DNA from: Promethearchaeota archaeon
GTDB lineage: Archaea; Asgardarchaeota; Lokiarchaeia; Sigyniarchaeales; SOKP01
Direction of reading: 5' to 3'
Length of the DNA stretch: 19,884 bases
Assembly (NCBI GenBank): GCA_008080735.1
Contig: SHMW01000079.1
Coordinates: 1 to 19,884, forward strand
A model generated the notes under the pieces. The model was not told the origin of the DNA and ran no database searches. It saw nothing but the letters and a program-made list of their open reading frames with translations. This document shows, one piece after another, positions 2,165 through 12,716 of this stretch. The first letter of the stretch is position 1. Each line of letters starts with the position of its first letter. A program made the translations under genes and the position numbers.

Positions 2165-2653
2165 ATGAGGAATATAACGAAGATATTATTTGTATGTACA
2201 GGAAATACGGCACGGAGCCCAGCAGCCGAATATCTGGCTAAATATTATGCGAAAAAAGCCGGTCTTGATATCAAATTTGAGAGTGCGGGATTTATCAACG
2301 CATTTTCGTATATGCAACCAGAATCGAGAAAATTTTTAGATAAAATGAAGATAGATCATTCTGATTTTTCTCCCCAGTTAGTTAGCGGAGATCTAATAAA
2401 AAAGCACGATCTTATCATTACGATGGAACGCTCTCATAAAACTCGGATAATTAATACCTACAGCCAACTTGGGGAAATTCAAAAAAAAACATATACTTTA
2501 AAAGAATTCACGGGAGCTTCGGGATCATTGGATATAGAAGACCCTTATTATACATCCAGTTCAAGATATCGAGAAATTCTAAATGCTATTGACGAGAATA
2601 TTAAAAAACTGATGCAAATTTTCAAAGAAGAAAACCAAAATATTACATTCTAA
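2165..2653 (+). CDS. low-molecular-weight phosphatase (LMW-PTP/ArsC/YwlE superfamily), copy 2
   Basis: ILFVCTGNTARS P-loop, ESAG, DLIITM, DIEDPYY. Confidence 0.93.
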   Translation: MRNITKILFVCTGNTARSPAAEYLAKYYAKKAGLDIKFESAGFINAFSYMQPESRKFLDKMKIDHSDFSPQLVSGDLIKKHDLIITMERSHKTRIINTYSQLGEIQKKTYTLKEFTGASGSLDIEDPYYTSSSRYREILNAIDENIKKLMQIFKEENQNITF

Positions 2654-3185
2654 TTTTATCTAATACATCGTCTAGATAATAGATTTGCTCTTCTCCTATT
2701 TCCTCCTCAATAATATTAGCTAATGAGTACTTAAAAGCCCATACTTCCACACGCTTATTCAGTTCCTTCACTTTTTTGATTACAGGAAGAAAATCACCAT
2801 CTCCAGAAACCAGAATAGCTGTATCATATCTATTTTCGTACGCAAAGGACACCATATCGATCGCGATTCTCACATCAACTTTCTTCTCAAAGGTTTTTCT
2901 TGAGACTCTCTTATCAAAGCTAGCCTTAATTGTGTAATTACTGTTATTTTTAAGGTCGTTATACCATTTTTTCTTCCTATTACTCATCGGATATACGATT
3001 CCTTCATATAGAAATATATCTTGTAAAATTCTATTTCCGAGAAGGACGGATTTTAGCCTTTCATAGTCTGCTTTTATTTTGTATCTCCTAAAACCTTTAA
3101 AAATATTGGAATTATCAATAAAAATCATTACTTTTTCATTAGACAAAAAATCAACTTGAGGTTCTATTAAACTGATATTGATCAA
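2643..3185 (-). CDS. NYN-domain (LabA/DUF88, PIN-like) protein
   Basis: IFIDNSN, EKKVDVRIAIDM and ILVSGDGDF acidic motifs all intact; start uncertain (TTG 3185 or 3146); 3' end overlaps the convergent phosphatase by 11 bp. Confidence 0.92.
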   Translation of the reverse strand: MINISLIEPQVDFLSNEKVMIFIDNSNIFKGFRRYKIKADYERLKSVLLGNRILQDIFLYEGIVYPMSNRKKKWYNDLKNNSNYTIKASFDKRVSRKTFEKKVDVRIAIDMVSFAYENRYDTAILVSGDGDFLPVIKKVKELNKRVEVWAFKYSLANIIEEEIGEEQIYYLDDVLDKIRM

Positions 3186-3289: not shown

Positions 3290-3691
3290 ATGAAGAAAGC
3301 TCAAGTTTGGTTGAAGGAAGCAGAATGGGATCTAAAAAATGCTCAAATCTTATTTGAAAATCAAAGATATAACACAGTGATTTTTTTAGCACAGCAAGCA
3401 TCCGAAAAAGCTGTGAAAGCTCTTCTCTTTTCTGAAGGTTTAAATGGTTGGGGTCATTCAATTTTAAATTTACTTAAGAAATATGCAGAAATTAGGAATC
3501 GGGAAATTGATTCTGTTGAAAAAGAGGCATTAAGCTTGGATAGAGAGTATATTCCAACAAGATATCCAGATGCTTTACCTGGACTTGCTCCTCATGAAGC
3601 ATATGATAAAAATGATGCAAAAAAAGCTTTAAGGGAAGCAGAAGAGATCATTAAATTTGTTAAAAATGAATTTAATACAAATCAAAATTAA
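3290..3691 (+). CDS. HEPN-domain protein (archaeal COG2250-like)
   Basis: W...A..DL..A, AQQASEKAVKALL, GHSILNLL and YIPTRYP motifs; sits next to an MNT gene. Confidence 0.92.
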   Translation: MKKAQVWLKEAEWDLKNAQILFENQRYNTVIFLAQQASEKAVKALLFSEGLNGWGHSILNLLKKYAEIRNREIDSVEKEALSLDREYIPTRYPDALPGLAPHEAYDKNDAKKALREAEEIIKFVKNEFNTNQN

Positions 3692-3715
3692 AAAAGTATA
3701 GGATGAGAGAATAAA

Positions 3716-4141
3716 ATGAATAAAGAACTGGTTAAGTCCTTAAATAGTTTAATTAAAAGTGTAAATAGAAAAATAAATTTGGAATGTGTTATTTTATTTG
3801 GTTCCCAAGCGCGAAATGAAGCTATGCCTCAAAGTGATATTGATTTAATCTTTATAGGAGATTTTGAGAAAAAATTTACTCGTCGCTCAAAAATTATTTA
3901 TAATAATTTTAATTTTGATCTCGGAAGAGGTTTGGACGCATTTTGCTACACAGCCTCTGAATTTGATAGGATGTTTTATGAAGGAGTGGTTTCGATATTA
4001 GATTCAATTGATGAAGGGATCTGCTTGCTTGGAGAAGAGTTTTTTGAGAAATACAAAAAGATATTGAATAAATTAAAGGAGAGAGGTCTCAAGAAAGATC
4101 CTCCGGTATGGATTTTACCAGAATCGATGGAAGTAAATTAA
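3716..4141 (+). CDS. minimal nucleotidyltransferase (MNT)
   Basis: ILFGSQAR...SDIDL (GS-X10-DXD) plus downstream LDAF; paired with HEPN. Confidence 0.92.
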   Translation: MNKELVKSLNSLIKSVNRKINLECVILFGSQARNEAMPQSDIDLIFIGDFEKKFTRRSKIIYNNFNFDLGRGLDAFCYTASEFDRMFYEGVVSILDSIDEGICLLGEEFFEKYKKILNKLKERGLKKDPPVWILPESMEVN

Positions 4142-4689: not shown

Positions 4690-5464
4690 ATTTATCTCCC
4701 ATAATTGATTGAATTTGATTTGAGGAAATTACTTTAAACAAAATATTTTCTAATAAGATACAAAATTCCTTCATTTCTTCTAATCGTTTTGATAGTAAAT
4801 CAAGGCCATTTCTGCTTTGATTATCCATTTTTTTCAATTGAGAGATCTTTTTATCAACAAATTTCAATAGTTCTTCAGCTTTTAGTGATTTTATAATTGA
4901 AACGTTTTTCGCAACATAGGCCATAGACTCTCCGATGGTATATTCATATTTCCGCGTTCCCTCTATGAGTTTTTTATGAACGAAGCCATAATTAACTAAA
5001 ATCTTTAGATTCTCTGAGATTGCACCTCTAGAATATCCTGATAATTTCTTAAGCTCTAATTGAGTCAAATGTTTATAAATAAGAAGATATGCTATAATAG
5101 CTGAAAGTGTTTCGTTAGTTCCTTTTCTTTTACCTATATCAACCAAAAACTTTACAAGTTTCTTCTCATAGGTTCTAATTTTCTCTTTTTGCAATTCTTT
5201 CTTTTTTATTTTTTCTGAAGATTGACGATTCAATACATCTTCAACTTGTCGCCAAAGAAATTCAAAATTGTCTTGGTATTCTTCTTCATTTTCTACAAGA
5301 TTTATGATTTTTTGGATTCTCTCGTCAAAACTTAAAGGATTTAAGATTAATTCCCTCAGCTTTTTTTTGAATTCAGCGATTTCATAAATTCCCTTTTCTA
5401 TGTAGTCTTCTATTAATTGTTGAATTAAACCATTCAAAATGTTAATATCTTTAGATTTAACCAT
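4676..5464 (-). CDS. GbsR/MarR-like winged-helix regulator with ~95-aa N-terminal helical extension
   Basis: LTQLELKKLSGYSRGAISENLKILVNYGFVHKKLIEGTRKYEY; overlaps the downstream paralogue by 14 bp. Confidence 0.82.
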   Translation of the reverse strand: MVKSKDINILNGLIQQLIEDYIEKGIYEIAEFKKKLRELILNPLSFDERIQKIINLVENEEEYQDNFEFLWRQVEDVLNRQSSEKIKKKELQKEKIRTYEKKLVKFLVDIGKRKGTNETLSAIIAYLLIYKHLTQLELKKLSGYSRGAISENLKILVNYGFVHKKLIEGTRKYEYTIGESMAYVAKNVSIIKSLKAEELLKFVDKKISQLKKMDNQSRNGLDLLSKRLEEMKEFCILLENILFKVISSNQIQSIMGDKFESN

Positions 5465-5539
5465 GAAAATAATTTATAATATTAGTTTTTGAAATCTCTT
5501 TTCTTATATAATATATCATTAGCTTTGTATATAAGATTC

Positions 5540-5559
5540 TTCATTTCAAATGAAATGAA
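5540..5559. promoter_or_regulatory. palindromic operator 1 (TTCATTTCA-AA-TGAAATGAA)
   Basis: Perfect 9-bp inverted repeat between the divergent regulator and ABC genes, directly upstream of a TTATATAT box at 5564-5571. Confidence 0.8.
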
Positions 5560-5605
5560 AACACTTATATATGAAAATTGATAATTATAATTTAGAAAAA
5601 TAAGT

Positions 5606-5625
5606 TTCATTTCATCTGAAGTGAA
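5606..5625. promoter_or_regulatory. palindromic operator 2 (TTCATTTCA-TC-TGAAGTGAA)
   Basis: Second copy of the same motif with one mismatch, just before the GGTGA RBS of the ABC ATPase. Confidence 0.8.
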
Positions 5626-5638
5626 GGTGATAATAAGA

Positions 5639-6577
5639 ATGAATTCGATCGAAGTAAAAAATTTAAAAAAGTATTACAACGGGGGATCAGTGAAAGCAGT
5701 TGACGGAATTTCTTTTGAAGTGCCTCAAGGTGCAAGATTCGGATTTTTAGGCCCTAATGGAGCTGGAAAGACCACTACCATTCGGTGTATCTTGGGATTT
5801 TTACACCCTGAGGATGGGGAAATCCATATACAAGGGGAAAAAATTACCCCCGTTTATGATGTGGAGTATCGCAATAAAATCGGATATCTCCCCGGAGAGC
5901 TGGGCTTGTATAAAACGATGAATGCGATGGATCTTTTTCAGCATTTTATGAAGCTTTATGATATGGATATTGATTGGAATTATGTAAAAGAGTTAGCTGA
6001 CCGACTCGAATTAGACTTAGAACGTAAAATGGGAAACCTAAGTAAAGGGAATAAACAAAAAGTTGGAGTAATCTCTGCTCTGATGGGAAAGTTTGATCTT
6101 TTAATTATGGATGAGCCATCTTCTTCATTAGATCCACTTAAAAAAAGAGAACTTTTCAAAATCATCTCTGAACACCAAAAAGAACATAATTCTACTATCT
6201 TTTTATCAAGCCATATTCTTGAAGAGGTTGAAAAATTTTGTGATCAAGTAGCTATAATAAGAAAAGGAAAAATCATCGAAATTTCAAATATTGATGATCT
6301 AAAAGCTAAAAGTCTGAAGGAAATTGGAATATATTTCAAGACTTCTAAAGGAAGAGAAGAATTTTTATCTTTTTTAAACTCAAAATATCCCCAAACTGTA
6401 TTAAAATATAATTCCAATCATCATGTAATATTTCTTATACCCCCAAAGGAAAGTCGAGAAATTCTTGAGAACATCAGTACACAGAAATGGGACGGGGAAT
6501 TTATCGAAGATTTCACAGTCGAGCACTCTTCATTAGAAAACATATTTTTACAATATTATCATGGGGGTGAAAAATAA
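5639..6577 (+). CDS. ABC-2 type exporter ATP-binding subunit
   Basis: Walker A GPNGAGKTT, signature LSKGNKQKV, Walker B LLIMDEP, H-loop LSSH. ATG 5639 preferred over GTG 5621 because GGTGA (5626-5630) precedes it. Confidence 0.95.
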   Translation: MNSIEVKNLKKYYNGGSVKAVDGISFEVPQGARFGFLGPNGAGKTTTIRCILGFLHPEDGEIHIQGEKITPVYDVEYRNKIGYLPGELGLYKTMNAMDLFQHFMKLYDMDIDWNYVKELADRLELDLERKMGNLSKGNKQKVGVISALMGKFDLLIMDEPSSSLDPLKKRELFKIISEHQKEHNSTIFLSSHILEEVEKFCDQVAIIRKGKIIEISNIDDLKAKSLKEIGIYFKTSKGREEFLSFLNSKYPQTVLKYNSNHHVIFLIPPKESREILENISTQKWDGEFIEDFTVEHSSLENIFLQYYHGGEK

Positions 6578-7392
6578 TGAAAGTATTTGAGTTGGCTAAA
6601 AAGGATTTATCTATTAATAAAACAGGGATTCTAATCTTTTCAGGATGTATCGCTTTATTCTTTTTCTGGTTTTCTTCTGTGTTTGATCCAGAATTATTTG
6701 CTGATCTAGAAGAATTCTATCAGAACTTTCCTGAAGCTATTAAATCTTTAGTTGGGGGACAATTATCCATCAGTGACTATAACAGCTTTATGAATGTGTA
6801 TCTGTTTTCCTTTGCATGGATGTGGATGGGTTTATATTTTCTTCTTAAAACTTCTCAAGATATTCCAACAGAAATTGAAGAAAAAACAATCGAAATTACA
6901 CTTTCGAAGCCAATAAAACGTTGGGAATTTGTAACAGCAAAATTGCTAAGACATCTAATAGTCCTTTTATTTATAACAGGACTCACAATGTTAAGTGTGT
7001 TTTCAGCACCATTCATACTCCCTAATACTGATCCAAATTATGTCAATTTCGGACCATTATCTATAGCATTTGTTTTATTAGTGCTTCATTTGTTCTCTCT
7101 ATTGGTAACAGGATTCATTTTTTCGACACTTTTCAATAGAAAGAAAGCATTGGCATTAAGTTTCGGAGTATTAATTTTTTTTTATGCAATTGGACAATTT
7201 TATGGGCTCTTTCCGGAAATAATCCGAGATATCAAATTTATCAGTATTTTCTATTACTTTGATACTTATGACCTACTTGTAAATGCTTCTCTAGACGGAT
7301 TGTTTATAAACATGCTTATTCTTTCCATATATTCTGTAGCTTTAATAATCGCATCGATTTTGATTTTTCAAAAGCGTAATATCCCCGTCTAA
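6577..7392 (+). CDS. ABC-2 type exporter permease
   Basis: About 6 TM segments, EIEEKTIEITLSKPIKRWEFVTAK motif, C-terminal FQKRNI; TAATG coupling to the ATPase. Confidence 0.93.
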   Translation: MKVFELAKKDLSINKTGILIFSGCIALFFFWFSSVFDPELFADLEEFYQNFPEAIKSLVGGQLSISDYNSFMNVYLFSFAWMWMGLYFLLKTSQDIPTEIEEKTIEITLSKPIKRWEFVTAKLLRHLIVLLFITGLTMLSVFSAPFILPNTDPNYVNFGPLSIAFVLLVLHLFSLLVTGFIFSTLFNRKKALALSFGVLIFFYAIGQFYGLFPEIIRDIKFISIFYYFDTYDLLVNASLDGLFINMLILSIYSVALIIASILIFQKRNIPV

Positions 7393-9186
7393 TCTGTAAT
7401 TAAATCTTTTTTCTTTTAATTCTTTCTGAATATAATCATCATAAATAACCTAATCTTATATTAGAGATTGGATTATTAGGGATTGATAAACTCTTTCCTT
7501 AACCTTTTCTGAGTAATTATGATATTTCGTTATTATTTTTATTACTTCTTTATTTCCTTTTTCTGTTAAATATGCTCTATCAAATTTATGATCCATATGC
7601 CTCTGATGTAGATTATCCATTTTTACAATTTTTAGGTATCCTCTTTCTATTAGACTTTTGGATAATGAATTATAGAAATAACTATATGAAAAACCTGAAA
7701 TTTTAATAAATCTTTGACAAATCATATATTCCCTTCTAAAAAATTTTATATAATAATAAACAATAAGTAGATAAAGTCTCCATCTATTGTAGTTATCGAA
7801 TGGCAATTCCAATGAAAATTTCGAATCCTCTATTAATTTTGTGGGGTATTCAAATTTCTTTAAGCTATTTAGGATATCTTCAAATTTGGTTTCGGCTTTC
7901 TTTTTAATTAGTTTTAATTGATCTTCATCGTAAAAAGATTTTAATACTTTATCACATACCAAATGAAAACTTGAATGTAGGTAGTAATGACAATTAGAAC
8001 ATAGACTGACACATTTTTCTTCGATAATTTTCTGAACAATTTCTTTAATATTTAAAGAGCTAATACCTTGCCAAAAGGAACCCTCCTCAGATTTCAATTC
8101 GGTATCAATATGATGTAAATCAAGTGTTGTGAGGTAATCATTTCCACAACTTATGCATTTACTATTAAAAAGCAACTTAAAAATAAATCTTTTTTTAATC
8201 CATTTTTTTATCTGATATTTGAATTTGCTAAATATTTTTTTTGGTACTTCCTTTTTTTTTGAAAGATAATTACTTTCAATATAATTGTTAAATGTATATG
8301 AATTTTCGAATTTCTTTAATTCATTGTCTAAAAACCTATCTACTTGTTCTGGATTCATTTCGAACAAATCCTTTTTGAAAATAATATTTGAAAATATTTT
8401 TGGTATTTTCACTTGTTCTATGGAGTGATGATTTTTGCATAATTGAGAAAGATTACTGTTGTCAAAATCTTTTAAATGGCATTTTCCACTATAATAATCA
8501 CTTAAAGTATAATTTTTATTTTTTTTATGATGAATATCGATTATTGGTAAATCTATAACATTGGATTCACATTTCTCACATTTAATTTCGCCAAAGAGAT
8601 GGAATAACAATTTAAACTTTTTTTTATTATCTCTTATTACTTTTTTAGAGATAAAATTCTTTAATCGCTCACATAAATTATAGTTTGCAAAATTAAATAA
8701 TGCTTTTGTAAATTCAATCCCAAATCTCTCAAAGAAATATGATTTTTTTTTATTATAATGCTTTTTTCTTAGTTGGCTAAAAGTAAATTCGAAATGACCC
8801 CTTGATCTTCCTCTCTTGAGGGCATTTCTAAAAGCATTAAATCCTAATGCATTTAATTCCTCAAAAGTTAAATTTGACTTTATAATGTAATAAGGAAGTA
8901 TCACTATAATGAAGTAATCATCTGCCAAGCAAGGATTTTTGTATAACCAAGACCATTTACTTTCTAATGATGATATCTTTATTGATCTTATTTCTAAGAA
9001 TATTTTCTCTTCTGGTAAAAATTCATAAAAAACCATTTTTTTATCTCATCTCATCGAATTCTTTTAAAGGGTTTTAAAATAGAAAAGAAATAAATACTTT
9101 TAAATGAAAATAATCACTAATTTCGATCCTTAAAGAATAGAAATTTTAAAAAATTCAATACTGGGATGAATTTATGAATTATACTT
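7240..9186. mobile_element. putative homing-endonuclease cassette (replacement permease 3' end plus double-HNH gene)
   Basis: 1947-bp interval between the starts of the two homologous permease 3' ends; both begin within a shared TTATCAG; only other content is the AT-rich HNH gene. The left boundary could lie further upstream. Confidence 0.55.
7456..9036 (-). CDS. tandem Zn-binding HNH endonuclease-like protein with probable C-terminal winged helix
   Basis: Module 1: CEKC...DIHH...NLSQLCKNHH (aa ~153-204). Module 2: CISC...DLHH...KCVSLCSNCH...H (aa ~294-354). C-terminal LSKSLIERGYLKIV...AYLTEKG resembles a wHTH. Confidence 0.75.
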   Translation of the reverse strand: MVFYEFLPEEKIFLEIRSIKISSLESKWSWLYKNPCLADDYFIIVILPYYIIKSNLTFEELNALGFNAFRNALKRGRSRGHFEFTFSQLRKKHYNKKKSYFFERFGIEFTKALFNFANYNLCERLKNFISKKVIRDNKKKFKLLFHLFGEIKCEKCESNVIDLPIIDIHHKKNKNYTLSDYYSGKCHLKDFDNSNLSQLCKNHHSIEQVKIPKIFSNIIFKKDLFEMNPEQVDRFLDNELKKFENSYTFNNYIESNYLSKKKEVPKKIFSKFKYQIKKWIKKRFIFKLLFNSKCISCGNDYLTTLDLHHIDTELKSEEGSFWQGISSLNIKEIVQKIIEEKCVSLCSNCHYYLHSSFHLVCDKVLKSFYDEDQLKLIKKKAETKFEDILNSLKKFEYPTKLIEDSKFSLELPFDNYNRWRLYLLIVYYYIKFFRREYMICQRFIKISGFSYSYFYNSLSKSLIERGYLKIVKMDNLHQRHMDHKFDRAYLTEKGNKEVIKIITKYHNYSEKVKERVYQSLIIQSLI

Positions 9187-9339
9187 ATCAGCATCTTCTA
9201 CTATTACGATACATATGATTTACTGGTAAATGCATCACTCGAGGGCTTTTTTGTAAATGTGTTGGTTCTATCCATTTATTCAACTGCCTTGATAATAACC
9301 TCGGTGCTCATCTTTCAAAAGCGAAATATCCCAGTTTAA
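9187..9339 (+). pseudogene. orphan duplicate 3' end (50 codons plus stop) of the ABC permease gene
   Basis: Translates ISIFYYYDTYDLLVNASLEGFFVNVLVLSIYSTALIITSVLIFQKRNIPV* versus permease ISIFYYFDTYDLLVNASLDGLFINMLILSIYSVALIIASILIFQKRNIPV*; in-frame TGA at 9175-9177 and no upstream ATG. Confidence 0.95.
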
Positions 9340-9540
9340 ATATTTCAATTTTTCACATTTCTTTTTTTATTAATAGAATCCAATCTACCTTGGAGAGTTT
9401 TTCCATGTCAGATTTCGAGTTCTTTTATCACCCTTTATAAAAAAATGCTATTTAAAGATTAACAAATATCGTTTGAAGGGAGAGAGAAGGGAGATAATTC
9501 CAAAAAGCAATATATATAAAATTTTGAGTTTTTATCAAAA

Positions 9541-10566
9541 TCAAGGGAAAATTTGAACCGGTACGTTATCAATTGTAATTGGATTTTGGTTCCATCTCCA
9601 GCCAGAGATTTTACACCTATAAAATGCATGATGTGGAGAATGTTCACGGTGAATATGACCTGCATAGTATGGTACGATAATGTGCTCACCTTTGTAGGTC
9701 GTTATGATATCTTCTAAATCATAAAATGAATCCTTATTGAGATTTGCCCCAAAAAGCGCTATTTCAGAAGGAAACCAAGGATAAATTTCAGAATCATCGC
9801 AATAATCGGGATCTCCCAAATATAACACCTTTTCTAATATCTTTCGAATCTGTGCAGGACCGTGTGAAGGGCCTAATTCTATTACAAATACAATGTTTCT
9901 GATCCCTCCTTTTGCCATCCTTTTTCCTAACCATGAATCTATTCTATTCATTTTACGTTTGCCGCCTTCAAGAAGAATATCAACCGAGAGCTCTTCTTTA
10001 TCAGGAGGACAACAAATTAATACATTTTTATCTATTTCCGCATCGGGTTCATAACGATTTTTTACCCATTCAAATAATAACTTGAGATGAGATTTCAAGG
10101 TTCCTTGTGCTTTTTTCCCTGCTATAGATTTATCTACTTCAATTTCTTGGTCTGTTTCTGCTCCCTCTTCCTCGATAACTCGTATATAATTTTCGACTTC
10201 TGTAATGAAGGGTTCAAATTTAGCAATATCTCCGTCAAAATCCTTAATATCTCCTTTATATTGCCTAACGAATAATTCTCCGAGATCATCCGCGATATCC
10301 TCTACGACTTGATCCGAAGGTTCTTTTCTGTCAGCAACTATCGCTACTACAACGCCTTCTTCCATTTTAACCTCGATCTTGTTTTCTTCGGTCATAAATT
10401 TGGTTAAATCACCGATATTAGCTTCCCGCAAAAATGAACGGATGCCTTGGAGCGCTCCCGAAAACATGGCAGAGGGCACGTTCAAATGGTCATCCAAGTC
10501 AAACAAATCCACATGGACTAAGGGAACACCAGAATCACGATGAATAATATGCACTTCTTTTATCAT
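9541..10566 (-). CDS. longin-like domain fused to a PD-(D/E)xK-like C-terminal domain
   Basis: From ATG 10566: MIKEVHIIHRDSGVPLV...MFSGALQGIRSFLREA...VVVAIVAD...LFVRQY...DFDGDIAKFEPF matches the Asgard longin pattern. The ORF extension to 10671 is AT-rich and promoter-like. Confidence 0.75.
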   Translation of the reverse strand: MIKEVHIIHRDSGVPLVHVDLFDLDDHLNVPSAMFSGALQGIRSFLREANIGDLTKFMTEENKIEVKMEEGVVVAIVADRKEPSDQVVEDIADDLGELFVRQYKGDIKDFDGDIAKFEPFITEVENYIRVIEEEGAETDQEIEVDKSIAGKKAQGTLKSHLKLLFEWVKNRYEPDAEIDKNVLICCPPDKEELSVDILLEGGKRKMNRIDSWLGKRMAKGGIRNIVFVIELGPSHGPAQIRKILEKVLYLGDPDYCDDSEIYPWFPSEIALFGANLNKDSFYDLEDIITTYKGEHIIVPYYAGHIHREHSPHHAFYRCKISGWRWNQNPITIDNVPVQIFP

Positions 10567-10690
10567 ATTTTTCGTAATGGGAAATATAATTATTTGATTG
10601 TATATGGGTTTTAAAACAAAATATAGATAAAAAAAGTAATTAAAAAATTTAAGTACTTTTTCGGGGTTCAATTCTTTTGTGAATTATAAT

Positions 10691-11401
10691 TTAGAATTCT
10701 TCCATAAAAAAGGGTTCTCCATGTCCTGGGAAAACTTTCTTTATAGACAATTCAGTAATTCGATCAATGCTCTTTTTATAGGCTTTTTTATCAGCAATCA
10801 TTTTTGCCTCTATGGGTTTTTTGATGTTTTCCAATAAATCTCCGCAGAAAAGGTTCCCCTCCTTGTCTAAAATACCGATCGAACCTCTTGAATGTCCGGG
10901 AATAGTGAAAACATCCGCATCATAGCCATATTCGGATAGAGATTGGCCGTCTACGAGAAATAGATCGGGAGTAAATCTATCCTCTTTCCTCAAATTTACT
11001 TTGAGGACATATGCCATCAATTTTCCAAACCCACGAATAATAATATTTAAATCTCGATTATATGTAAAATCTCCAAATTCTACCATCCCTATATCGTCTC
11101 GATGCATTGCGATTTTTGTTTGGAATTTTTCTCTCAGATATTTACAATTTCCTACATGGTCGGAATCTCCGTGCGTTACAACAATTAATTTCAAATCCCC
11201 AGGATAGCAACCCGCAGCCAATATAGCCTCTTCCACTTGCTTACGATTCTTTGGTAAACCTGAATCTATTAATATGTATCCATCTTTGCTTTCTACAAGA
11301 TAACAATTTACATCCTCTAATTTAATAATCCTAATTCTTTCGGAGATATCCATTTGATTTAGTTTGAACCTGTTTTCTAATTCTATTACCTCATTACTCA
11401 T
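10691..11401 (-). CDS. metallo-beta-lactamase-fold hydrolase
   Basis: ILIDSG, THGDSDH (HxHxDH variant), PGHSRGS, CGD, PGHG. Confidence 0.93.
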   Translation of the reverse strand: MSNEVIELENRFKLNQMDISERIRIIKLEDVNCYLVESKDGYILIDSGLPKNRKQVEEAILAAGCYPGDLKLIVVTHGDSDHVGNCKYLREKFQTKIAMHRDDIGMVEFGDFTYNRDLNIIIRGFGKLMAYVLKVNLRKEDRFTPDLFLVDGQSLSEYGYDADVFTIPGHSRGSIGILDKEGNLFCGDLLENIKKPIEAKMIADKKAYKKSIDRITELSIKKVFPGHGEPFFMEEF

Positions 11402-11442
11402 TTTTATTTATCAACTCATATTGATATTACTATTCTATTATA

Positions 11443-11486
11443 AGTGAATATTCGTTCACTATTGAATAAATAAATGACCATTCACT
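11443..11486. promoter_or_regulatory. two putative TetR operators
   Basis: AGTGAA-N6-TTCACT at 11443-11460 and degenerate AATAAA-N6-TTCACT at 11469-11486, between the divergent MBL and TetR genes. Confidence 0.65.
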
Positions 11487-11517
11487 TTTAAATATTTTGG
11501 TTCATTATAATGATCTA

Positions 11518-12102
11518 ATGAGAACTCGAGATCCGAAAAAAAAAGAATCGATTATTAATGAAACTATAAAGCTTGTAAATGAGTTGGGATTCACTGGAAT
11601 TTCAATATCGAAGATAGTAGATGAGGCGGGGGTGTCTCCAGCCACAATATATATCTATTATGAAGATAAGCAAGATTTATTAACAAAAATTTATGTGGAT
11701 ATTCGGGAAAAAATGGGAAAAGCCGCGCTTTCTAATTTAAAGAAGCAGATGAGTATTGAAGAGAGATTTAAAACAATTTGGCGTGATTTCTTCAAATATG
11801 CGGTAAAGCATCCCCAGTTCATCTCCTATCGTGAACAATTTGAACAGACTACTATGATGGAGGGAATTAATGAGAATGAATTTGAATTATTTAGTTATAT
11901 CACAGATTTGTTTCAAGAAGGTATAAAAAAAAAGAAGATTAAAGATTTAGAATTGCCATTTTTAGTGTCGTTTGCATTCATACCGATTATTAACCTTCTA
12001 AAATTTCATTTTGACGCTGAATTTACTATGACTGAGAGCAAGATTGGTATAGCAAGCGATATGGCGTGGGATATTATAAAATATTCAGAATCTGAGAAAT
12101 AA
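11518..12102 (+). CDS. TetR/AcrR family regulator
   Basis: GFTGISISKIVDEAGVSPATIYIYYEDKQDL HTH; ATG 11518 preferred to TTG 11497. Confidence 0.94.
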   Translation: MRTRDPKKKESIINETIKLVNELGFTGISISKIVDEAGVSPATIYIYYEDKQDLLTKIYVDIREKMGKAALSNLKKQMSIEERFKTIWRDFFKYAVKHPQFISYREQFEQTTMMEGINENEFELFSYITDLFQEGIKKKKIKDLELPFLVSFAFIPIINLLKFHFDAEFTMTESKIGIASDMAWDIIKYSESEK

Positions 12103-12164
12103 AATATTATCTGCTGGTCTTAACCAAGCTTAATAGTTATTAGAAATCTTGAATTTACCATAGT

Positions 12165-12716
12165 ATGACTGGAAAAAACTTGATATCCCAACAATCCATA
12201 AAAAAGTATCTCGAAAGATTTGAACGGATTAAAAAACTCGGATACACAGAAGAGGGAGATGCTGCATTTATCCAGGAAATGGTGGCAACATCTGAACAAA
12301 TAGACAATTTGTGTGTAAAAGCTTCTATTGGTGAATATGAGCTCTATTGTGATGAACCAGAAAACTTGGGAGGAACAGCAAAAGCCCCTAATCCCATGCA
12401 GACCTTGCTCGGAGCGTTTGCCAACTGTTTAGAAATAAGCGCTATGCTTTATTTCTGCTTTATGAATCTTGATGTCCGCTCAGTCAATGTAAAAGTCATG
12501 GCAAAATACGACAAAAGGAGTGTATTGCTAAGAAAGAAAGATTGTTTACCTGGTTTTTATGATATCACTTACACGTGGTATATTGATACGAACGAAAACA
12601 AGAACAAAATTGAACGAGCTTTAGATGCTATAGCAGAATCATGCCCAGTTAAATGGACTTTGAAAAAGGAACATAAATTTTCACAGAAAATAATTTTGAA
12701 TAAATATCGTAAATAA
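12165..12716 (+). CDS. OsmC/Ohr-like family protein
   Basis: DEPENLGG...PNPMQTLLGAFANCL and distal CPV. Confidence 0.9.
   Translation: MTGKNLISQQSIKKYLERFERIKKLGYTEEGDAAFIQEMVATSEQIDNLCVKASIGEYELYCDEPENLGGTAKAPNPMQTLLGAFANCLEISAMLYFCFMNLDVRSVNVKVMAKYDKRSVLLRKKDCLPGFYDITYTWYIDTNENKNKIERALDAIAESCPVKWTLKKEHKFSQKIILNKYRK

Follow-up and report, generated by a model that had tools for sequence, protein, structure and literature searches.

A gene encoding a 526-aa nuclease-like protein in an Asgard archaeal genome lies between the working 3′ end of an ABC permease gene and a stranded second copy of that end. The arrangement is probably a free-standing homing element that swaps out one end of its host gene and works like the yeast WHO element. 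Since relatives of the protein show the same layout at nine different genes, with either 5′ or 3′ ends duplicated, they most likely form a family of selfish, end-replacing homing elements. The chimeric genes, the polarity at two other genes, the empty alleles, the breakpoint shared at lpdA, the target-linked clade and the recurrence were observed. Cleavage, resistance, nuclease expression and the route of DNA exchange are inferred parts of the homing proposal and have not been demonstrated.

An antisense gene between two copies of a permease 3′ end

The window is the whole 19,884-nt stretch that was analysed, contig C79 of G000, a 4.1-Mb metagenome-assembled genome (MAG) with 7% contamination. 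The features of the locus are as follows.

5621-6577: ABC ATPase preceding the permease
6577-7392, + strand: host gene, an ABC-2 type permease of 271 aa (PF12679, E 3e-19)
7169-7392, + strand: exchanged 3′ tract of the working permease, codon 198 to stop, taking in copy 1 (7240-7392); defined by differences from the same-species locus L243
7216-7242, + strand: inferred target region, permease codons 214-222, with the unique residues I215 and F221; the orphan's left edge maps here
7456-9036, - strand: 526-aa nuclease-like gene, with an N-terminal helical part, two Zn-binding HNH modules and a C-terminal winged helix
7495-7806, - strand: winged helix, residues 411-514, the probable DNA-binding part (VIA-align to 2qvo)
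7975-8157, - strand: HNH module 2 (C294, C297, H308, H309, C346, N348, C349, H350, H354)
8425-8580, - strand: HNH module 1 (C153, C156, H169, H170, C200, N202, H204)
9037-9177, no strand assigned: AT-rich spacer with the right junction, read from the sequence
9178-9339, + strand: orphan copy 2, a displaced former working permease 3′ end without a start codon (match to the L202 working tail)
9340-10566, - strand: downstream flank and 341-aa gene (9541-10566), directly behind the permease in L202

The last 50 codons and stop of the permease recur as an ungapped direct repeat (7240-7392 and 9187-9339, offset 1947 bp), by far the longest repeat of the window. The two copies differ at 41 nt, 30 of them third positions, with 25 synonymous and 9 non-synonymous codon changes (9 aa differences; pS 0.82, pN 0.11, pN/pS ~0.13). 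The differences are almost all synonymous, and both copies therefore diverged while coding. A tblastn search with the repeated tail, in which the copies match each other at E 1.6e-19, found no third copy in the genome. Just before copy 2 the frame is closed by a stop at 9175-9177, and no ATG, GTG or TTG lies between that stop and the copy. Its homology may tentatively be followed back to ~9167 across a 5-nt deletion. The sole gene between the copies is the antisense ORF at 7456-9036, whose GC content of 0.247 is in the lowest 0.2% among the genome's long ORFs. The spacer presumably holds the nuclease promoter, although a promoter has not been shown. A preliminary description had reported the repeat, its divergence under purifying selection, the missing start and the lone antisense, AT-rich double-HNH gene, and recomputation confirmed each of these.

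Two unlike copies might also result from a local tandem duplication that has since decayed or from an assembly that mixes two strains, and a contaminated MAG invites the suspicion. Both are largely refuted, and we give them almost no weight. Besides the synonymous character of the differences, tail 2 (copy 2) matches the working tail of another species (L202, below). An independent JGI assembly (L031) has the identical layout at 99.7% identity to the window, which makes a chimeric assembly unlikely; this outcome, which the preliminary description had said would refute its proposal, was not borne out.

Upstream of the ABC operon, the window also carries a HEPN and nucleotidyltransferase pair and an NYN gene (3290-4141, 2643-3185); in G003 and G006 the pair is missing at the corresponding position. 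At a contig end in another genome (L029:172-334, G008:C91), the NYN gene has beside it a decayed orphan from this permease family that covers the last 53 codons.

The nuclease-like protein and its family

Neither Pfam nor PADLOC gave a match for the window's own 526-aa protein. Its two CxxC..HH..CxNCH modules are almost invariant across 62 homologues, in which H169, H170 and C200 are invariant and both modules keep the catalytic His-His strand, the Zn-binding CxxC pairs and the CxxCH helix motif. Module 2 has a PF01844 match in 26 of the 62 family members, and its weak match to EcoKMcrA (E 0.016) is the best PDB sequence match. The predicted structure (pLDDT 92) contains a winged helix that aligns to 2qvo with VIA-align (Z 10.1, rmsd 2.4, 86 aligned) and has many MarR-type matches. 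Whole-model searches with Foldseek and VIA-align matched the winged helix only. Fold matches of a single HNH module were weak (E > 0.5, Z ~3), with many HNH proteins among the matches listed, including T5 SciA, Cap5, Cas9, IscB, Gme HNH and McrA; an Atlas comparison gave TM 0.51 to an archaeal HNH-repeat cluster. That the protein is a nuclease is inferred, cleavage not having been shown.

Of 161 genomes of the class, 68 carry the family, often in several copies, and nearly all of these come from one family-level group. A profile search returned 115 clusters at E < 1e-30. No LAGLIDADG or intein family occurs among the 25 most frequent Pfam matches. Members range from ~300 to >1800 aa, and two lpdA-clade members (L138 and L139, in G016 and G074) reach 1200-1335 aa through acidic N-terminal extensions.

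The EcoKMcrA match, weak as it is, raises the question of a defence nuclease, a McrA-like or wH-HNH modification-dependent restriction enzyme kept for host benefit and moved as cargo. McrA-type and wH-HNH type IV enzymes share the CxxC..HH..CxxCH motif and the winged helix (PDB 6ghc; PMC11037411), and the wH-HNH enzymes exist in archaea (PMC11037411). However, they have one HNH domain, which in the wH-HNH enzymes follows the winged helix, and are methylation-dependent, and no gene-end replacement has been described for them (PMC11037411). The window's protein differs in size and order, with two HNH modules followed by the winged helix, and the absence of a PADLOC match and the fixed breakpoints described below also count against a defence role. 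We consider it very improbable.

Nuclease-free alleles and the exchanged permease end

The locus L243, from a Logan run, belongs to the same species as the window. It has no HNH nuclease and no orphan at the permease, and other genes lie downstream. Its permease is 98.8% identical to that of the window up to codon 197 and then abruptly ~75% identical, with 7 differences in nt 1-592 and 55 in nt 593-816. This switch indicates that the permease 3′ end was exchanged from about codon 198. It is the same pattern as in the alleles of yeast FBA1, which are 99% identical upstream and 85% downstream (PMC7282813). The exchange begins some 20 codons upstream of the orphan's edge; the repeat at 7240-7392 had been taken as the replaced end and does belong to it, but the exchanged tract starts at ~7169, not at codon 222.

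In L202 (GCA_014730295.1), the permease leads straight into the 341-aa gene, and window positions 9188-10739 align in one piece to L202 positions 4720-6230 (86%). The orphan is 87.6% identical to the L202 working tail at the nucleotide level and 90% at the amino acid level. Tail 2 keeps 12 of 16 fourfold sites relative to L202, much as the downstream gene does (84 of 113); the working tail 1 keeps 4 of 13 and the permease body 22 of 57, both saturated. Tail 2 thus once worked as a gene end and goes together with the downstream DNA. L202 was considered as a close empty relative and rejected, being another species with only the block from tail 2 to the OsmC gene in common. This block (9187-12716: tail 2, the 341-aa gene and OsmC) resembles L202 far more closely than its surroundings do and is a segment shared horizontally. 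Since L202 is distant outside it, the block moved between lineages. Tail 2 may thus be the ancestral end or an earlier import that was later displaced, and the polarity at the window locus is unresolved. Tail 2 joined to the window's own permease 5′ part occurs in no close relative, as L202 belongs to another species and the tail of L243 is a third one. Empty alleles do exist, in L243 and L202, but neither makes the predicted junction of the window's 5′ part with tail 2.

Within the exchanged tract, I215 and F221 are the only residues seen in none of 13 homologues. Codons 214-222 read PEIIRDIKF in the window and PEFMxxIKY in most homologues. We infer that these codons are the cut site, for which there are no cleavage data, and that the two residues at the orphan's edge give the expected look of a resistant allele.

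In every relative, other genes occupy the slot behind the permease, and permease tails differ even where no nuclease is present (L243, L202, L203). A further candidate, the permease of L244 that ends at codon 195, was set aside as an assembly or library artefact; this JGI contig has a fold-back chimera at 1378-1453.

Duplicated ends of other genes around family members

Family members lie between duplicated 3′ ends of guaA (84% nt, enclosing a three-gene cargo), of a radical SAM gene (84%), of an acyl-CoA synthetase-like gene (79%) and of lpdA (77-81%), and between duplicated 5′ ends of a DUF6125 gene (83%), a GH20 gene (72%) and an ABC ATPase gene (88%). At an ABC transporter in G051 there is a nuclease gene at each end and a 3′ fragment of 68% identity, which could instead derive from a neighbouring paralogue. 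In L074, an orphan RTC 3′ end begins 10 nt behind the nuclease. Within the clade of the window's protein, five of eight distinct loci have the bracket or orphan layout, at five different genes. The expectation that HNH homologues would be flanked by duplicated gene ends was therefore met repeatedly.

An automatic rule, applied to family loci with flanks of at least 3 kb (n = 31), found brackets at 6, compared with 13 of 3003 G000 genes and none of 379 neighbouring genes. The resulting p of 2e-8 is overstated by kinship, and two of the six bracketed loci are the same lpdA element. An ambiguous repeat at L164 was left out of the counts. About 80% of family loci have no detectable bracket, and many of these are in clades tied to one locus; they would fit T4-like intergenic homing, eroded orphans or vertical inheritance. 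Only clades with support of at least 95 were used, because the tree, from a quick run, had long end branches.

Polarity and breakpoints at lpdA and the acyl-CoA synthetase-like gene

At the acyl-CoA synthetase-like gene of G069, compared with the empty relatives G085 and G086, the body and the orphan are each 94% identical and the orphan's flank 90-91%, whereas the working tail reaches only 79%. For lpdA of G074 and G097, compared with six empty relatives, the values are 85-88% for the body, 88-90% for the orphan and 73-78% for the working tail. Judged by these identities, the orphan is the native end and the working end the foreign one at both genes. This supports the original proposal of homing in which a foreign end displaces the native end, and none of its refuting conditions that could be checked was fulfilled; the window locus calls for more caution, as tail 2 may be an earlier import there and the layout also occurs around non-HNH cargo.

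The lpdA switch lies ~240 nt before the end, and the cluster of changes there alters the protein, from FIMVL to FLAVL or FLVVL. Four orphans (in G016, G117 and twice in G081) start at codons 413-417, where the working gene turns foreign and is recoded, and three others start later, at codons 427-436, which fits erosion. The two orphans in G081 are stacked. All three lpdA-adjacent nucleases form one clade (SH-aLRT 100). In G089 the first part of the tail is foreign and the rest native, as is the flank after it, a mosaic that fits recombination between both copies with loss by pop-out. G069 keeps a nuclease remnant behind lpdA, and no family nuclease adjoins the lpdA orphans of G081 and G099.

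In G016, 23 kb of cargo separates lpdA from the orphan, which would suit an integrase-driven island or provirus remnant that carries a spare gene end and whose integrase was lost or acts in trans. guaA is a known island target in bacteria. The prophage e14 is inserted by an integrase, and none was seen at the window locus. At E. coli icd/icdC, the gene takes a substitute 3′ end from e14 and a C-terminal pseudogene stays behind, a layout identical in kind (PMC13626634). Nonetheless, no integrase was recognised in the bracketed loci, as judged by inspection and not by a systematic scan. The window copies share no long identical core and enclose a single gene, although an integrase in trans is not excluded, and the use of nine unrelated targets at both gene ends is not what an island would lead one to expect. 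We regard an island origin as improbable, if slightly less so than a defence role.

The same layout around other cargo

By the automatic rule, G000 contains eleven bracketed pairs, some of them false. Among those that look real, the enclosed cargo is a PD-(D/E)XK gene, a TPR gene or a small toxin-antitoxin pair, and each of the three UPF0175 antitoxin genes in G000 lies between repeats. The layout is therefore not specific to the HNH family. The PDDEXK_10 gene (291 aa) is at C24:7441-8951 (L225), between duplicated 3′ ends of a thioesterase-like gene (82%), and is possibly a second nuclease family with like behaviour. The TPR gene is at C4:58153-59793 (L224), inside a duplicated ABC ATPase 5′ end. 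That 5′ end is the site occupied by the HNH family in G123 and G129, and no similarity was detected between the C4 insert and the family. Non-HNH brackets may be leftovers after nuclease loss or the mark of a general uptake route.

Such uptake is the main rival to homing. A related gene end would recombine on one side and illegitimate joining would complete the other, after a break of any origin, with the HNH gene a passenger, like the toxin-antitoxin pairs, in the variable slot behind the permease. The UPF0175, TPR and PD-(D/E)XK brackets favour this, as do the changing slot content and the permease tails that differ without a nuclease. However, it does not predict the shared recoded breakpoint at lpdA, the target-specific nuclease clade or the stacked orphans. 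Brackets without a nuclease can be leftovers of nuclease loss, as at lpdA in G069, G081 and G099. Moreover, the PIN (PF01850) matches that could be placed all lie outside brackets, save one in a near-identical repeat at a contig end. We consider general uptake unlikely but a serious contender. Homing by a free-standing nuclease remains the preferred reading. It is weakened by the unbracketed ~80% of loci, the non-HNH brackets in G000, the weak fold matches of the HNH modules, the lpdA orphans without a nuclease and the lack of a relative with tail 2 on the window's 5′ part.

Comparison with known elements

The closest known system is the WHO element at yeast FBA1 (Coughlan et al. 2020, PMC7282813; bioRxiv 10.64898/2026.08.13.744650), in which a free-standing nuclease gene has on one side the working host gene, its 3′ end replaced, and on the other a fragment of the end that was there before. 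Alleles are near-identical upstream and divergent downstream, fragments are stacked, and there is no splicing (PMC7282813). The Asgard loci show three features of this class: a nuclease gene between an intact host gene and an end fragment (at the window and other loci), empty alleles with differing histories of the host-gene ends (L243 and L202, lpdA, the acyl-CoA synthetase-like gene), and a fixed breakpoint with fragment stacking (lpdA). The 526-aa protein, with its tandem HNH modules and winged helix, is not a member of the WHO protein family proper. WHO proteins are kin to HO and intein endonucleases, carry a zinc finger and home in meiosis in the yeast nuclear genome, mainly at one target gene (PMC7282813), whereas the Asgard family occupies an archaeal chromosome, has at least nine targets, uses 5′ and 3′ ends and has cargo of up to 23 kb, with cleavage only inferred.

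The fungal mitochondrial and T4 systems, which had been named as parallels when WHO was not, are also alike. Mobile endonuclease ORFs of fungal mitochondria (Allomyces atp6; Glomus atp6, atp9, cox2 and nad3) stand between a foreign working C-terminus and a native C-terminus that matches close relatives (PMC3630166). They encode LAGLIDADG or GIY-YIG enzymes and are often in frame or co-transcribed with the host gene (PMC3630166), in contrast to the antisense or separate HNH gene on a prokaryotic chromosome. In T4 intronless homing, free-standing HNH genes of the seg/mob type spread by break repair with co-conversion, in phage genomes, with intergenic insertion and a distant cut site; the parts of the source available to us describe no stranded gene-end copy (PMC2988022). 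By analogy, this process may describe the unbracketed family members. A literature search that did not cover subscription papers found no description of such elements in Asgard archaea, in keeping with the novelty first suggested.

A model for end replacement and its implications

The order of events that we propose (a cut, one-sided recombination with end joining, and later two-sided conversion) is inferred by analogy with the WHO model (PMC7282813). When a cell contains both donor and recipient DNA, the tandem-HNH/winged-helix protein would cut a permease allele that lacks the nuclease, near codons 214-222. In a first invasion, the upstream end would recombine with the donor's permease, with a crossover near codon 198, and the donor's recoded 3′ end and nuclease gene would be copied in. 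The downstream end would be joined without homology, stranding the old end as an orphan. The orphan could later supply the right-hand homology, so that the unit would spread through ordinary gene conversion. The recoded end would keep the host protein whole and escape cutting.

Splicing-free homing elements are known in yeast and in fungal mitochondria, and the present family would extend them to an archaeal chromosome and a different enzyme. To our knowledge, no mechanism has been established by which Asgard archaea exchange DNA. Since homing can occur only where donor and recipient DNA are in one cell, the swapped ends would be dated traces of such exchange. Replaced ends make housekeeping genes such as lpdA and guaA chimeric, a possible source of error in gene trees of the lineage closest to eukaryotes. 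The predicted cut sites and the natural alleles, presumed sensitive or resistant, make the family directly testable, and it may supply new rare-cutting enzymes.

A broader possibility, slightly less likely than not, is that Promethearchaeales chromosomes are widely invaded by undescribed tandem-HNH/winged-helix homing nucleases that retarget readily, replace either gene end and draw cargo in behind. If so, end replacement set off by a nuclease would rank among the main routes by which Asgard archaea gain genes and evolve chimeric ones, and frequent chromosome contact between different strains and species would be implied.

Two minor observations concern G000. Toxin-antitoxin-like pairs lie between direct repeats of 80-300 nt at C2:99219-101935, C44:6659-9052, C41:30337-31595 and C66:13240-14474, where the repeats are a GTPase 3′ end, an actin-like 5′ end and other flanks, and UPF0175 is present at three of the four sites. 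In addition, HdrA-like genes at C42:15303-15515 and C13:35573-35790 have an in-frame stop, its codon not checked, that aligns with a cysteine of a paralogue and probably encodes selenocysteine.
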